The notes under the pieces are model-generated. The model saw only the letters and a list, made by a program, of their open reading frames with translations, was not told where the DNA came from and searched no databases. From the IMG/VR virus record IMGVR_UViG_2547132270_000012: a stretch of 4,453 bases of DNA. The stretch is one strand, 5' to 3'. A program made the translations under genes and the position numbers. Below are positions 304-4,347 of this stretch, in pieces (the stretch's first letter is position 1; each line of letters opens with the position of its first letter). The stretch comes from a virus (lineage: Duplodnaviria > Heunggongvirae > Uroviricota > Caudoviricetes).

Positions 304-926
304 TTTTGAATCACCGTTGTTGCATAGGAATAAATAAAAGGGAGTTTTACATATTTCTGGTCAATGGCATCTTTCAGAAAATAGCCTATACCATCGCCAT
401 ACTCTGGTATCTGAATAGAAAAAACACTGTCCGATACAGTCACACTCACATCAAAAGTATGCTGTAACGGCGGGTCTATTCCGTTTTTTCCATGAATAAA
501 CCGCGCCACACGGCGCTTTAACCAGTCAATGCAGAAATGCGAACCGTCAGCCTTATAAAAATTCCACGTTAATATTCGTTTAAAATAATCATCAGGAACA
601 TACGATGCCTGCCCCGGAACGTAATTCCGCATTGCTGCATACGGGATCGTATTGTATTCAATGGTATCGTATGCGCCGCGTGCAATAGCCTCCTCGGAAA
701 CCTGTAGTAAAGGCCTTTCAACGCCATAAATACCAAGCGCAATCCAGTCCAGCAACTGTCCGGTTATTGACTCCGATGTCCAGCATGGCAACGCCAGTTT
801 ATTGAGTGAATCGAGATATTCCTGAGCGATTTCATTGTATGCATCAAAGAACGCAACAATATTCGGATCATCTCTGTACTGTACAAATGGATAAGCAGGA
901 AGAATTTTCTCAGTCAGATATTGCAT
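300..926 (-). CDS. phage baseplate wedge/tail protein, Mu gp48-like (DUF2612-type)
   Basis: Track ORF 300-1034 trimmed to the ATG at 926 (MQYLTEKILPAYPFVQYRDDPNIV...), which has an AGG about 9 nt upstream. The 36 codons upstream of it lie inside the J-like gene in another frame and are R/W/H-rich and not protein-like. Stop is TGA at 302-300; 208 aa. Size and position between a J-like gene and a fibre gene match the Mu gp48 family; the family assignment is from memory, not a search. Confidence 0.65.
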   Translation of the reverse strand: MQYLTEKILPAYPFVQYRDDPNIVAFFDAYNEIAQEYLDSLNKLALPCWTSESITGQLLDWIALGIYGVERPLLQVSEEAIARGAYDTIEYNTIPYAAMRNYVPGQASYVPDDYFKRILTWNFYKADGSHFCIDWLKRRVARFIHGKNGIDPPLQHTFDVSVTVSDSVFSIQIPEYGDGIGYFLKDAIDQKYVKLPFIYSYATTVIQK

Positions 927-2136
927 ACTTGTTGACCTGAACCTGTGATGCCACCGTCGAAAAATAAGAATAGGTATCGCCATAAACCAGACTCGTATCT
1001 TTCGTAGGCGAGACAATATGGCCGTTAATACCAATGCTCACACTAATTGTTGAGATCAACGTCGCATCAACCAGCAGCCTGACAGAACTGGTAAAAATAT
1101 CCTGGATACGCAGAAGATTTATCGGGTGTCCGACTTCAATTGAATTGATGTAATCAGCAACGTTTTGCTGCACAGCCATAGCAATACCCGCCGGATCAAC
1201 ATAATCATCAGACACCGTGTTCCAGGTGATTAGCACCATGACATTTTGTGATGACGGGATAACGAAAGGCACCTGATAAACGTCCGGCGAAACGGTTATT
1301 GAAACCGTGCGTTTTTCCACTGCCGCACCGGACGGATTGCTAACATCGTTGGTCAGTTTCGAAATATCCGGTACAGATTTGTAAATCGCATAAGCCACAT
1401 CATACGGATCACCGCCACCAACAACCGCAACCCATTTCCCCAGCGACGACTGCCGGAAAGAAATCAGGTTTTCGCGCACACCGCTTACTGATTTGAGCAT
1501 CGCTTTAAAGCAATCCGGTGTTCCCTGCACACCAAACATGCCGGACTCCATGACTTCGGCGCGGTATGATGCCCACGTCTGCGCCTCCTGACCGGGCATA
1601 CCTGCGGTAAGGTTCGTGCATTTTACAGGCTGATCTTTGGGTACCGATGTAATGACCTGCGTTACGGTTCCTTCCGGTACAGCCCATGAGCCTGACGTTG
1701 TGGCCACACAGTAGACTGGCTCAGTCTGCCCGCTTTCCGGTACCACCGTATCGCGGGAAACTGCATACTGGTAGTTGCCGTCACCGACAACAAATCCTTT
1801 AGGGATACCAAACCCCGGCAACGCCTCAAACACCACGTATACCGCCGTATTTGTACTTAATCCCTTCTGTGCTCCATAAATGTTTCCGAGTTGCATCAGT
1901 AACGGAATATTCGCGCCGTATGGGCTTACGGAGTTAATAAGATCAACCCGCGCCTGGTCTATTAATGCCAGCGCCCCGACTGCCGTGCTGGCAAGGTCTG
2001 TAATAAGTCCCGCCGGAAGGTTGGCTGTATATCCAGGTACTTTTTCGGCAACTCTGGTGATAAGATTCGCGAGCAAATCATTGGGTGGCGTAGGCTGCGC
2101 ACCCGCACTGGTCATAGTAATTGGTATTTCTGACAT
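910..2136 (-). CDS. baseplate J-like protein (Mu gp47 / P2 gpJ family)
   Basis: Long minus-strand frame (track 910-2178, which begins at a TTG). The first ATG, at 2136 (MSEIPITMTSAG...), is preferred; ATG 2115 is also possible. Stop is TGA at 912-910; 408 aa from 2136. The protein has the Gly/Val/Thr-rich block typical of Baseplate_J proteins (...LGNIYGAQKGLSTNTAVYVVFEALPGFGIPKGFVVGDGNYQYAV...VYCVATTSGSWAVPEGTVTQVITSVP...). Overlaps the next gene by 17 nt. Confidence 0.75.
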   Translation of the reverse strand: MSEIPITMTSAGAQPTPPNDLLANLITRVAEKVPGYTANLPAGLITDLASTAVGALALIDQARVDLINSVSPYGANIPLLMQLGNIYGAQKGLSTNTAVYVVFEALPGFGIPKGFVVGDGNYQYAVSRDTVVPESGQTEPVYCVATTSGSWAVPEGTVTQVITSVPKDQPVKCTNLTAGMPGQEAQTWASYRAEVMESGMFGVQGTPDCFKAMLKSVSGVRENLISFRQSSLGKWVAVVGGGDPYDVAYAIYKSVPDISKLTNDVSNPSGAAVEKRTVSITVSPDVYQVPFVIPSSQNVMVLITWNTVSDDYVDPAGIAMAVQQNVADYINSIEVGHPINLLRIQDIFTSSVRLLVDATLISTISVSIGINGHIVSPTKDTSLVYGDTYSYFSTVASQVQVNKYAISD

Positions 2137-2163
2137 ATTTAAAACCCATATAGGAGATTTTCG

Positions 2164-2766
2164 ATGGACAGCATTCAACTGGAAAATATAAGGAAAGAAA
2201 AGCCAGACAACATTTTCATAATTTTAGGAATTATTCTTATTAACCTTTTCCTATTATCATTTCTCTACATTCCCGAAAAATATGATCGTGTAATAACATT
2301 CACCTTCGCACTTTCAATCATATTATTAATTTATCTTGATTCCAGATTGTTAACAAAATCTGGGTATGAACCAACTATTTCAAGAGCATGGGTGATACTG
2401 TTCGGCGCATTCTTTTTTGTTTTCTGGGTATGGAAACGCTACACATGGTTCGGAGATAAAACAAGGATTCTTTTCTGGGTATTATTGTTATCGACAGGCG
2501 TATCTTTTTATTATTCATATAATACAGAGAACAATAAAATGCTTGGTGAAACAGCCTGTGAATTATCAACTCAAATCATGAGCGAACAATACAACCGCCC
2601 CGATATAAAGTGTTCAAGGGTCGTTGAAATTAAGGAAATTGATAATAATTTCTATAAGGCCAGAGCCATATTTAACAACGGCACAACACAAAGCATTACT
2701 ATAGATGTTAGAAAAGAAAATGGACAAGAGATGGTGTATGTAAGCCTAAATCCTTTAGGTAATTGA
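2164..2766 (+). CDS. hypothetical polytopic membrane protein (4 predicted TM helices plus ~80-aa C-terminal globular domain); candidate superinfection-exclusion factor
   Basis: ATG at 2164 preceded by a strong SD, AGGAG (2153-2157), with a 6-nt spacer. 200 aa with four hydrophobic stretches (about residues 17-36, 43-58, 75-90, 102-119) and a polar C-terminal domain (...CELSTQIMSEQYNRPDIKCSRVVEIKEIDNNFYKARAIFNNGTTQSITIDVRKENGQEMVYVSL...). GC is about 33% by hand count over ten 60-nt lines, against about 55% in the adjacent J-like gene. Function is an inference. Confidence 0.75.
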   Translation: MDSIQLENIRKEKPDNIFIILGIILINLFLLSFLYIPEKYDRVITFTFALSIILLIYLDSRLLTKSGYEPTISRAWVILFGAFFFVFWVWKRYTWFGDKTRILFWVLLLSTGVSFYYSYNTENNKMLGETACELSTQIMSEQYNRPDIKCSRVVEIKEIDNNFYKARAIFNNGTTQSITIDVRKENGQEMVYVSLNPLGN

Positions 2767-2785
2767 TCCCCACCCCTTTACAATC

Positions 2786-2811
2786 GCGCCCAATAAAGTA
2801 TGATTGGGCGC
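2786..2811 (+). promoter_or_regulatory. perfect 9-bp stem hairpin (GCGCCCAAT / ATTGGGCGC, 8-nt loop) 20 nt after the membrane-gene stop
   Basis: Arms at 2786-2794 and 2803-2811 are exact reverse complements. No U-tract follows on either strand, so it is not a classic intrinsic terminator; it could be an RNA stability or processing element or a protein-binding palindrome. Confidence 0.4.
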
Positions 2812-2921: not shown

Positions 2922-3002
2922 TGTCGGGAGGGCGACGAATACAACACCCGAAAGGGGAATAAGTCCGCGGTACTTGTAGCCGTTTCGAACCTCCCGACAC
3001 CA
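2922..3002 (+). ncRNA. tRNA-acceptor-like structured RNA element, candidate C4-like antisense/cis-regulatory RNA controlling the downstream antirepressor gene
   Basis: Perfect 10-bp inverted repeat TGTCGGGAGG (2922-2931) / CCTCCCGACA (2990-2999) enclosing 58 nt, followed directly by ACCA, giving an acceptor-stem-plus-NCCA look. It contains an internal CCC-GAAA-GGG tetraloop hairpin (2947-2956). Segment 2973-2989 is reverse-complementary at 14 of 17 positions to 3015-3031, next to the SD of the following gene. There is no canonical D or T arm, so it is not a tRNA. Strand and exact ends are inferred. Confidence 0.45.
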
Positions 3003-3014
3003 CTTTGGTTCTTC

Positions 3015-3034
3015 TTCGAAAAAGATACAAGAGG
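3015..3034 (+). promoter_or_regulatory. predicted target/anti-SD pairing site overlapping the ribosome-binding site of the AntA-like gene
   Basis: TTCGAAAAAGATACAAG (3015-3031) pairs with 2973-2989 as 7 bp + 1 bp + 6 bp. The SD AGAGG is at 3030-3034 and the ATG at 3040. Confidence 0.4.
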
Positions 3035-3039
3035 TTACT

Positions 3040-3609
3040 ATGACCATCCAACTGATTCCCGTTTTCAGCGGAACTATCTCAAACGAAACTATCCTTCTAT
3101 GCAATGCACGTGATTTACACGATTTTCTTGAAGTAGGAAAAGTGTTTGCAGCCTGGATTAACGCTCGCATTGAAGAGTATGGATTCGAAGAAAATAAGGA
3201 TTTTGTAGTTTTTTCCAATTCTGGAAAAAATAGCGTAGGTCGTCGCCGCAAGGACTACCACCTAACCCTGGACACCGCCAAAGAGCTGGCGATGGTTGAG
3301 CGCAACGAAAAAGGCCGCCAGATCCGCCGATACTTTATCGAGTGCGAGAAAAAGCTGCGCGATGCAACTCCAGACCGCAACAAAATCATCCACGGTTCTC
3401 CTCGAACTGTTGTCATCCGGTTGGACGACACCGGAAATGTCATTTATACCGAAACCGTACCGACTGATGCCGTAGTCTGCACACCTGAAAGTTATAAACA
3501 GTGGATGGAAAAATGCGGCTGGCTGGTCATTCGCCAGGAAGAACTACGACATATCACGCTGGACAGACTTTTTGCCGGATATGCTCAAACCGGAACCTGC
3601 GTCCGGTAA
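3040..3609 (+). CDS. AntA/AntB-family phage antirepressor-like protein (N-terminal AntA domain plus uncharacterised ~75-aa C-terminal region)
   Basis: ATG at 3040 with SD AGAGG and a 5-nt spacer; stop TAA at 3607-3609; 189 aa. The N-terminal ~110 aa carry the motif pattern I recall for AntA-type antirepressors (LIPVFSG...NARDLHDFLEVGK.F..WI..RIEEYGF.EN.DF.......DYHLTLDTAKELAMVERNEKGRQIRRYFIECEKKL). The domain call is from memory, not a search. Confidence 0.75.
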   Translation: MTIQLIPVFSGTISNETILLCNARDLHDFLEVGKVFAAWINARIEEYGFEENKDFVVFSNSGKNSVGRRRKDYHLTLDTAKELAMVERNEKGRQIRRYFIECEKKLRDATPDRNKIIHGSPRTVVIRLDDTGNVIYTETVPTDAVVCTPESYKQWMEKCGWLVIRQEELRHITLDRLFAGYAQTGTCVR

Positions 3610-3932
3610 CTGGTTCCGTTAAAAAACACAACATCGATGTTATAGGTGGGGTTCTCTGCCCCATCTACCTTTGAAATGGCCAATGATGCAAAATACCCGG
3701 CAAACTGTTGCTGAACCATGTTCACATAGTAGTCTGGGTAAATCTGCTGCACGATGCACTGCTGCGCAGGAATACCGTAATTCGCGTAAAACGGCGACTC
3801 CCCCAACCCCAGCTTTAACGTCTGAATGAGCGTCGTCAGCCAGCCGTAGGAGAAATCACCGTTGGCGTCAGATTCTACTGCAACCCATTTTTTGTTGCCG
3901 TTCGCGTCGGTGACGCGGCCCCATGTTCTCAT
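3585..3932 (-). CDS. hypothetical protein (115 aa), third gene of the small minus-strand cluster
   Basis: ATG at 3932 with SD GAAAGG and a 7-nt spacer; stop TGA at 3587-3585. GC is about 50% and the sequence is non-repetitive. Its 3' end overlaps the 3' end of the convergent antirepressor-like gene by 25 bp. Function unknown; a weak gp25/GPW-like G-x7-YG motif was noted but not accepted. Confidence 0.6.
   Translation of the reverse strand: MRTWGRVTDANGNKKWVAVESDANGDFSYGWLTTLIQTLKLGLGESPFYANYGIPAQQCIVQQIYPDYYVNMVQQQFAGYFASLAISKVDGAENPTYNIDVVFFNGTSYRTQVPV
3591..3618. other. hairpin (CGGAACC / GGTTCCG, 14-nt loop) at the convergent 3'-end overlap of the antirepressor-like and 115-aa genes
   Basis: 7-bp inverted repeat spanning the TAA stop of the plus-strand gene. 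It is followed on the plus strand by an A-rich tract (TTAAAAAACAC) rather than U-rich, so it is not a canonical terminator in either direction. Confidence 0.3.
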
Positions 3933-3935
3933 ACG

Positions 3936-4100
3936 TCAACCTTTCAAGTAAATTAGGGTGCCGGTAACCAGAGCGGTGCAAATGATCCACGCTACTGGAG
4001 TCAGAATATGCCGAATACCCCGACATACTGCGATTATTCTCGCAGCCTTATCAGCTCCTTTTGGGGTTGTCTCAGCCTTAAAAATCAGTTCGCTATCCAT
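3936..4100 (-). CDS. small hypothetical membrane protein (54 aa; below the ORF-track length cutoff)
   Basis: Hand translation gives ATG at 4100-4098 and TGA at 3938-3936 (MDSELIFKAETTPKGADKAARIIAVCRGIRHILTPVAWIICTALVTGTLIYLKG). SD AAAGG sits 6-7 nt upstream. The ATG overlaps the end of the preceding ORF, and the stop lies 3 nt before the ATG of the 115-aa gene. One C-terminal hydrophobic helix. Coding status rests on the compact arrangement. Confidence 0.4.
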   Translation of the reverse strand: MDSELIFKAETTPKGADKAARIIAVCRGIRHILTPVAWIICTALVTGTLIYLKG

Positions 4101-4287
4101 TTAGAACCTTTATGATCTCTGCGATCCCCGGAAGAGATTTGGCAACTGCAAACCCTCCGATAACTATAAGAACTGCATAAAACATTCTTCTCAGAACCGG
4201 ACTTCTTTCGAGCAATTTTAGAGCTTCCACAATCCAGTCTCCTCCGCTAAAATTAATCACGGAAGACCTCCAAACATACGTAATCAT
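4093..4287 (-). CDS. small hypothetical membrane protein (64 aa from ATG 4287, or 55 aa from GTG 4260)
   Basis: Track ORF; stop TAG at 4095-4093. The ATG at 4287 has a poorly spaced SD, whereas the in-frame GTG at 4260-4258 is preceded by GGAGG with a 6-nt spacer, so the shorter form may be the real one. Hydrophobic C-terminal half (MFYAVLIVIGGFAVAKSLPGIAEII). Confidence 0.4.
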   Translation of the reverse strand: MITYVWRSSVINFSGGDWIVEALKLLERSPVLRRMFYAVLIVIGGFAVAKSLPGIAEIIKVLNG

Positions 4288-4315: not shown

Positions 4316-4347
4316 AAAGCCCCGACTGTTTGCCCAGTCGGGGCTTT
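4316..4347. terminator. strong intrinsic (rho-independent) terminator, probably bidirectional
   Basis: 13-bp perfect stem AAAGCCCCGACTG / CAGTCGGGGCTTT (GC-rich 10-bp core) with a 6-nt loop TTTGCC. U-rich tracts follow on both strands (plus CGCTTTAT; minus TTTCTGTTTCTG). Confidence 0.7.

Follow-up and report, generated by a model that had tools for sequence, protein, structure and literature searches.

The DNA examined here (hereafter, the window) is a 4,453-bp stretch that constitutes the full contig AEJY01000214.1 of an Escherichia coli draft assembly. Its minus strand carries a tail operon that includes a baseplate J-like gene, a gene for a 208-amino-acid (aa) protein (p208; phrog_8212), and a gene for a 115-aa tail-module protein (p115). 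On the plus strand, this operon is interrupted by a gene for a 200-aa membrane protein, a small RNA (sRNA) of the sRNA-Xcc1 family, and the antirepressor gene ant (Table 1). The 200-aa gene is the subject of this report. Comparison with related loci showed it to be a functional, horizontally acquired accessory gene (moron) in a cargo slot of a Rac-type lambdoid E. coli prophage.

Table 1. Features of the window and of the 200-aa protein (nt, nucleotides; TM, transmembrane segment)
Feature	Position	Strand	Basis or remark
200-aa membrane-protein coding sequence	2164..2766	+	ATG start, stop codon 2764-2766; open reading frame list, orthologues, phrog_12486
Shine-Dalgarno AGGAG	2152..2156	+	7 nt upstream of ATG; GGAG core retained in orthologues
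TM1 (aa 17-35)	2212..2268	+	Kyte-Doolittle up to 2.75; model helix 17-35
TM2 (aa 44-60), ends in family-wide Asp59	2293..2343	+	hydrophobicity scan and model
Hydrophobic segment 3 (aa 76-90), then invariant Arg92	2389..2433	+	broken model helix
TM4 (aa 102-118), continuous with long helix of C-terminal domain	2467..2517	+	model helix 99-141
Predicted C-terminal extracytoplasmic domain (aa 119-200, polar, 82 aa)	2518..2763	+	one helix against four-stranded antiparallel sheet
Asp59			111/112 relatives
Arg92			116/116 relatives
Cys132	2557-2559		107/145 relatives
Cys150	2611-2613		144/145 relatives
Baseplate J-like gene, 408 aa, left edge of cargo slot	910..2136	-	Pfam Baseplate_J, phrog_6; start by alignment and called gene
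Candidate extended -10 promoter element TGaCATATT	2131..2139	+	overlaps J start codon on opposite strand; putative
Promoter-like TTTACA-16-TATGAT	2777-2804	+	just past stop of 200-aa gene; good sigma-70 resemblance
Perfect palindrome GCGCCCAAT-N8-ATTGGGCGC	2786-2811	+	overlaps promoter-like TTTACA-16-TATGAT
sRNA-Xcc1-family small RNA	2923..3006	+	Rfam RF02221, 78.1 bits vs gathering score 53; 34 nt upstream of ant
AntA-family antirepressor gene (ant)	3040..3609	+	Pfam AntA E 3.9e-27; phrog_377
Conserved 115-aa tail-module gene (p115), right edge of cargo slot	3585..3932	-	phrog_7986
Small open reading frame, 54 aa, with hydrophobic segment	3936-4100	-	matches no family
Small open reading frame, 64 aa, with hydrophobic segment, overlaps 54-aa frame	4093-4287	-	matches no family

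The original prediction, made from the letters of the window, had described a 200-aa open reading frame (ORF) with a strong Shine-Dalgarno sequence, pointing away from the tail genes and of foreign composition, and these points were upheld. Orthologues of the protein were found at 56 to 99% identity, and for five of them (56 to 79% identity), the ratio of nonsynonymous to synonymous substitution rates (dN/dS) was 0.15 to 0.27. By our own calculation, the chance of 200 stop-free codons at the base composition of the gene is ∼2e-7. Given this low chance and these ratios, the gene is genuine and under purifying selection. The start of J was placed at 2136 (MSEIPIT..., 408 aa) on the basis of the public gene call and of relatives aligned to the window, rather than at the upstream TTG of the mechanically derived ORF, and therefore, only 27 bp lie between the divergent starts of J (2136) and the 200-aa gene (2164). 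With respect to composition, the GC content of the 200-aa gene was 33.5% (33% at third codon positions), against 49.3% for the entire J gene and 47.5% for ant. The predicted contrast thus stands for the gene itself, but the value of about 55% given for J fits only the J-proximal stretch 1400 to 2100, to which a GC fraction of 0.52 to 0.565 was limited.

Different genes were found at the same position in close relatives. The closest public relative, Escherichia phage Rac-SA53, is an intact Rac-type lambdoid prophage at ttcA that carries the LT-IIa enterotoxin, hok/mok, and a pertussis-like toxin. It is 95.6% identical to the window, but across only 72% of the length of the latter, and its slot, from J to the sRNA, encodes two unrelated signal-peptide proteins, rac62 and rac61. 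In E. coli W, the slot encodes an exported protein of 179 aa and ant is truncated, and in strain 214-4 (L012, 5078-6238), the slot holds a 386-aa nuclease (phrog_4225) annotated as a type I restriction endonuclease. In a metagenomic locus (L005), an orthologue of the 200-aa gene is followed by a YafO toxin and a partner of ∼194 aa (5222-6180), with no ant, while in Salmonella Aberdeen (L004), an additional 158-aa membrane-anchored ORF lies ahead of the orthologue. The cargo of the slot was mostly 31 to 37% GC. When the window was compared with three loci, J, p208, and p115 were 92 to 99% identical, the 200-aa protein 68 to 78%, and Ant 55 to 59%; p115 was 97 to 99% identical across relatives with differing cargo. 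The 200-aa gene was detected in 0 of 5,426 complete E. coli genomes by megablast and sensitive blastn, and the J flank in 87. The assignment as a moron is thus based on a composition unlike that of the neighboring genes, on the presence of the gene in some phages and its absence at the same position from close relatives with 92 to 99% identical flanks, and on the other cargo found in the slot. The original prediction had proposed a moron acquired horizontally and located beside the genes for host recognition, and the comparison bore this out. Literature searches found no study of the protein's family or of the cargo slot.

The close subfamily (≥56% identity) comprised only 7 clusters among 5.8 billion proteins, and every one with an examinable context belonged to a Rac-type prophage (Escherichia, Citrobacter, or Salmonella). 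No close relative of the gene was present in 185,579 species-representative genomes, and a search of IMG/VR gave one close relative only. The gene directly followed the J start in each of the five orthologue contexts inspected. The Salmonella Aberdeen allele (L004, 8001-8606) was mosaic, being 30% identical to the window in TM1-2, 93% in TM3-4, and 89% in the C-terminal domain, which points to recombination inside the gene. Two further observations were made on the slot and its cargo. PP818812.1 (L002), recorded as "Actinobacillus phage vB_Apl-pPE4," carries rac62-type cargo and is 94.5% identical over the tail region to the E. coli Rac-type prophage, and its stated Actinobacillus host therefore appears doubtful. 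In addition, a YafO gene paired with a gene for a 202-aa protein (L032, 34782-35810) was observed on a plasmid of phage-plasmid-like type, on which a distant relative of the 200-aa protein is also encoded.

The only PHROG membership of the 200-aa protein was phrog_12486 (function unknown; E = 5.9e-20), and no match to the core protein was obtained with Pfam, NCBIfam, PADLOC, or a PDB sequence search. An exhaustive profile search, however, recovered 114 representative clusters at E ≤ 1e-3, 9 of them at E ≤ 1e-10, and a word-indexed profile search contributed little further. The earlier statement that the protein has no obvious relative hence applies to named families but overlooks a sizeable unnamed one that is widespread on mobile elements. 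The 200-aa protein fits the family pattern, which reads LD..L.K.G...PS..W....P.Y.W.R, then a span, in the TM module and AC..VT.I..E.....C..V...E...FY.A.A.L.NG...ITIE...IYV in the C-terminal domain. Some loci match the membrane module alone, and the two modules are thus separable. Relatives of ∼35% identity were found on ∼107 IncFIB plasmids (∼50 to 190 kb, mostly non-mobilizable) of E. coli, Salmonella, and Citrobacter; one such plasmid encodes NrdAB, ThyA, DHFR, DnaE, SbcCD, and ligase, a gene content which we take to be that of an SSU5/pHCM2-type phage-plasmid. Other relatives were in Dickeya and Erwinia jumbo phages (AD1/Ea_2910A), in islands with either ParE/DUF932/excisionase/transposase genes or Lamassu/integrase genes, and in chromosomes of Pseudomonas, Ralstonia, and metagenome-assembled genomes, one of them (L018) beside guaA. 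Viral contigs scanned with P0011 and P0014 yielded nothing, no plasmid copy of P0011 was found, and the plasmid homologue had no near match in the phage collection. A Pfam LptF_LptG match (E = 0.018) was set aside as uninformative, as it covered transmembrane segments only. Sub-threshold matches to DUF7929 in three lipoprotein relatives (13 to 19 bits against a 27-bit cutoff) were recorded as a faint lead.

Hydrophobic segments were scored on the Kyte-Doolittle scale with a 19-residue window and a threshold of 1.4, and the structure was modeled with AlphaFold. A first model, built from 8 close sequences with a predicted local distance difference test score (pLDDT) of 67, was replaced by a model from 37 sequences with a pLDDT of 90.3 and a predicted template modeling score (pTM) of 0.74. 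The latter comprised helices at 17-35 and 38-65, a broken helix at 74-80/85-96, a long helix at 99-141, and four antiparallel strands. TM4 was not flagged by the 19-residue scan; its mean hydrophobicity, calculated by hand on the same scale, was ∼1.6 over 17 residues. Segment 3 had a mean length of 10.8 residues over 37 relatives, with a central Pro (Gly81 in the window protein), and the loops on either side of it were strongly positive (K+R of 3.05 and 3.49), while the loop following TM1 was short and acidic. An N-terminal GYF_2 domain was present in 6 of the 37 relatives, and a zinc ribbon or DnaJ domain in others. In shorter relatives, the C-terminal domain stands directly behind lipoprotein signal peptides (lipoboxes LTGC, ITGC, and LGGC) or signal anchors, sometimes in tandem copies. 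The cytoplasmic-type N-terminal fusions, the acidic TM1 loop, the positive loops around a short segment 3, and the lipoprotein and anchored relatives together make it probable that the chain runs from a cytoplasmic N terminus through TM1 and TM2, a hairpin re-entering from the cytoplasmic side, and TM4 to a periplasmic C-terminal domain. Segment 3 is accordingly read as a hairpin that probably does not span the membrane fully. The "four-helix" description in the original prediction was therefore right as to four hydrophobic segments and a polar C-terminal part of 82 aa, but three spans and a re-entrant segment are probably present.

Comparison of the C-terminal domain with known folds gave scores of 7.8 for Tarocystatin, 7.7 for Multicystatin, and 7.2 for Latexin, followed by 6.3 for VirB8, 6.2 for DotI, and 6.0 for TraE. 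As modeled, the domain of the 200-aa protein has the cystatin fold and is best described as cystatin/NTF2 (VirB8)-like. The inhibitory QxVxG hairpin, the N-terminal Gly, and the PW motif of cystatins were absent from aa 119-200 on direct reading. Foldseek on an AlphaFold model of this domain had been suggested with the original prediction; against the PDB, it gave no match at E ≤ 1e-3. Structure matches in BFVD were to uncharacterized phage proteins only.

Residue conservation was counted from 149 aligned sequences (Table 1). In 25 relatives, lipoprotein forms included, Cys150 is the only cysteine of the domain. An intramolecular disulfide cannot, because of these relatives, be the only role of Cys150, and the simple disulfide explanation was weakened to that extent. 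The residue might also form an intermolecular bond or serve as a reactive thiol.

For the function of the protein, superinfection exclusion at the stage of DNA entry is a plausible, if tentative, reading. It was reached by positional analogy, since P22 sieA and P1 sim each lie beside an RNA-controlled ant cassette. The defense-type cargo of the slot (nuclease, toxin-antitoxin pair) and the frequency of the family on competing mobile elements are also suggestive of exclusion. We strongly infer that the product is an inner-membrane protein with its N terminus in the cytoplasm, in which two spans are followed by a re-entrant hairpin at the cytoplasmic face bearing the invariant Asp59 and Arg92, and in which a third span continues into the cystatin/NTF2-like domain of the periplasm, where both Cys132 and Cys150 are usually present. 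Judged by its position, the gene would be expressed in the prophage state without depending on late transcription, and the protein would exclude superinfecting phages at the envelope. Its periplasmic domain might bind the tape-measure/transglycosylase or tail-tip protein released by an incoming phage or, alternatively, a host factor of the inner membrane that DNA passage requires. In either case, DNA entry would fail after adsorption, as with P22 SieA, P1 Sim, HK97 gp15, and T4 Imm. A wider version of this proposal is rather unlikely: the protein would be the founding member of a new, widespread class of envelope-exclusion proteins on temperate phages, phage-plasmids, jumbo phages, and integrative elements, in which the membrane module presents a domain that intercepts the incoming DNA-delivery apparatus, and the chromosomal GYF_2 and zinc-ribbon forms, together with the free lipoproteins, would be cellular relatives.

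Several results weigh against exclusion. With PHROG, PADLOC, and hhalign against SieA, SimC, and RexB, no known exclusion or abortive-infection protein emerged as a homologue. The hhalign probability was 0.2% for SieA, whose motif FxRYPxEAxxFNK was absent from the 200-aa protein on direct reading, and 0.1% for SimC and for RexB, and the protein matched 0 families among the PADLOC-DB defense models. A GtrC-like lead was likewise rejected, as the match to phrog_4829 (E = 3.8e-4) covered the transmembrane region only and hhalign against P22 GtrC gave a probability of 0.2%. Some relatives are chromosomal and lie beside housekeeping genes (L018, guaA), so that a general envelope role of the family is possible. 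Among close orthologues, the periplasmic domain was mostly conserved (54 to 89% identical) and the TM1-2 half was the most variable (30 to 66%), a pattern that a simple arms race at the periplasmic interface does not predict. Further points of this kind are that the promoter candidate was weak and no terminator was found, and that the plasmid and jumbo-phage relatives are not located beside tail genes.

The conserved periplasmic domain would be easier to understand if the protein served lysogenic conversion, that is, if it were an envelope protein with a benefit unrelated to phages. Such a benefit could lie in envelope homeostasis or in resistance to bacteriocins or host factors, or the cystatin-like domain could inhibit or bind a periplasmic enzyme. 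Lambda lom and bor set a precedent for morons located close to tail or lysis genes. The chromosomal relatives with cytoplasmic GYF_2, zinc-ribbon, and DnaJ domains, at least one of which is in a housekeeping neighborhood, the occurrence of the C-terminal domain as a free lipoprotein, sometimes in tandem, and the resemblance of the fold to protease inhibitors (cystatins, latexin, and fetuin-B) all fit this proposal. However, the cystatin QxVxG motif is missing, identity to cystatins is 5 to 15%, the subfamilies occur preferentially on phages, phage-plasmid-like plasmids, and islands, and the same slot also holds a nuclease and a toxin-antitoxin pair. Lysogenic conversion was consequently judged possible but on the unlikely side.

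The original prediction had also named abortive infection, and a RexB-like or pore-forming membrane effector that depolarizes or kills the cell upon phage infection appears distinctly unlikely. The absence of a RexA-like sensor partner from the window and the orthologous loci, and of any RexB homology or PADLOC match, tells against an effector of this kind. Furthermore, a conserved, structured periplasmic domain that also exists in free-lipoprotein versions suits binding better than pore formation. In its favor are the prophage-encoded multi-span architecture, the invariant charged residues Asp59 and Arg92 at the membrane interface, and the toxin-antitoxin pair that adjoins the gene in L005.

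The association with the antirepressor unit was also assessed. The sRNA and ant accompany the 200-aa gene in five of six loci (the window, L003, L004, L006, and L013) and are absent in L005; an sRNA-Xcc1-family RNA was also found in L001. The segment 2777-2811, which is probably the promoter/operator of the sRNA-ant unit, was conserved only in loci with the 200-aa gene, and the promoter of Rac-SA53 differs from it. Homology between the two cargo types restarts at ∼2812, marking a recombination joint. Rac-SA53 and Stx phages, in turn, carry the sRNA and ant without the 200-aa gene. From these comparisons, the gene and the ant control region travel together, yet membrane protein and antirepressor form modules that can be separated, because L005 has the gene without the sRNA and ant and Rac-SA53 has the reverse. 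The single immunity/exclusion cassette originally envisaged was therefore retained as a frequent association and set aside as a fixed unit. The same data bear on whether the protein might serve the sRNA-antirepressor switch as a membrane sensor or regulator, for instance, by making prophage induction responsive to an envelope signal. Despite the co-occurrence, the shared inheritance of the ant promoter with its palindromic operator-like site, and the lack of a detectable terminator between the gene and that promoter, such a role is very unlikely; the L005 orthologue and the Rac-SA53 and Stx phages break the linkage in both directions, no ant was found near the plasmid and jumbo-phage relatives, and the short N-terminal cytoplasmic tail has no recognizable signaling domain. 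A virion-assembly or lysis role in the phage's own lytic cycle, for which the location among tail genes could be cited, is most improbable for a gene of foreign composition on the strand opposite to the tail operon that is absent from Rac-SA53 and from the 87 E. coli genomes keeping the same tail genes.

With respect to expression, the only sigma-70-like candidate upstream of the 200-aa gene was the weak extended -10 element at 2131-2139. This element lies in the fixed flank, where the Rac-SA53 version reads TGACATAAT, and because of this location, it could drive any inserted cargo. A terminator scan found none for the 200-aa gene and none between it and the ant promoter. A small hairpin (CCAAC/GTTGG) followed by T6 was noted at 2847-2872, between the ant promoter and the sRNA, and was invariant in five loci; it was missed by the scan because its loop is 9 nt, and its role may be that of a leader attenuator, or it may mark where a short RNA ends. 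The 3′ part of the sRNA (2973-2989) is 82% complementary to 3015-3031, a stretch that overlaps the ant Shine-Dalgarno sequence AAGAGG (3029-3034), a pairing suggestive of c4-like control of ant translation. The 3′ ends of ant and the p115 gene overlap convergently by 25 bp (3585-3609). Late transcription of the tail operon would run antisense to the entire plus-strand cassette. Beyond the two small ORFs on the minus strand, a strong GC-rich hairpin was observed at ∼4316-4345, with a sub-threshold match to the P22 sar RNA (24 bits against 43). A Rha/ORF11CD3 gene lies near the equivalent of 3936-4345 in L004 and L006, and the region around these positions may for that reason be a second variable slot.

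Whatever the function, these data newly delimit a hotspot for cargo in Rac-type lambdoid prophages, bounded by the p115 gene and baseplate J; Rac-SA53, the LT-IIa toxin phage, is of this phage type. As the hotspot gathers a nuclease and a toxin-antitoxin pair in addition to AT-rich envelope proteins, it is a useful place to seek new prophage-borne conflict genes. The 200-aa protein itself represents an uncharacterized family of distinctive architecture within the known class of prophage accessory envelope proteins, and exclusion or abortive infection, as originally predicted, is a reasonable and testable hypothesis by analogy. If exclusion were true, the responsible protein would be unrelated to those with which it was compared here (SieA, SimC, and RexB) and would have a clearly folded periplasmic domain suited to binding and structural studies, and it would provide the first function for a family of >100 sequence clusters without a database model. 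If the protein had no phage phenotype, it would be an ordinary moron.

Among known systems, the periplasmic domains of VirB8, DotI, and TraE and the cystatin superfold share only 3 to 15% identity with the C-terminal domain, which has four strands and one helix only, lacks the cystatin inhibitory motifs, and is found here outside any type IV secretion context. Lambda RexB is likewise a four-segment membrane protein expressed from the prophage, but it has no periplasmic domain. P1 Sim, which confers superimmunity by blocking DNA entry after adsorption, acts in the periplasm. In the P1 record, simCBA is directly beside and divergent from c4-icd-ant, near tail, transglycosylase, and baseplate genes, and the 200-aa gene similarly adjoins an RNA-controlled ant cassette and tail genes. 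The two differ in that sim is divergent from c4-ant, whereas the 200-aa gene is co-oriented with the sRNA and ant, and in that SimC is a signal-peptide protein, whereas the 200-aa protein is a multi-span protein with a polar N terminus and no signal peptide. P22 SieA is a protein of the inner membrane, 162 to 164 aa long, for which three spans are predicted and which prevents DNA injection (PMC10883804). Its function has been demonstrated, whereas that of the 200-aa protein is predicted, and SieA is without a structured periplasmic C-terminal domain. According to the P22 record, sieA is on the strand opposite to the late genes, between the ejection gene 16 and mnt-arc-sar-ant-gene 9, and the placement of both sieA and sim stated in the original prediction was thus correct. 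Like SieA, the 200-aa protein is a small prophage inner-membrane protein with three to four predicted spans, and like sieA, its gene is on the opposite strand to the late genes, within the virion-gene region, and adjoins a small-RNA-controlled antirepressor cassette.

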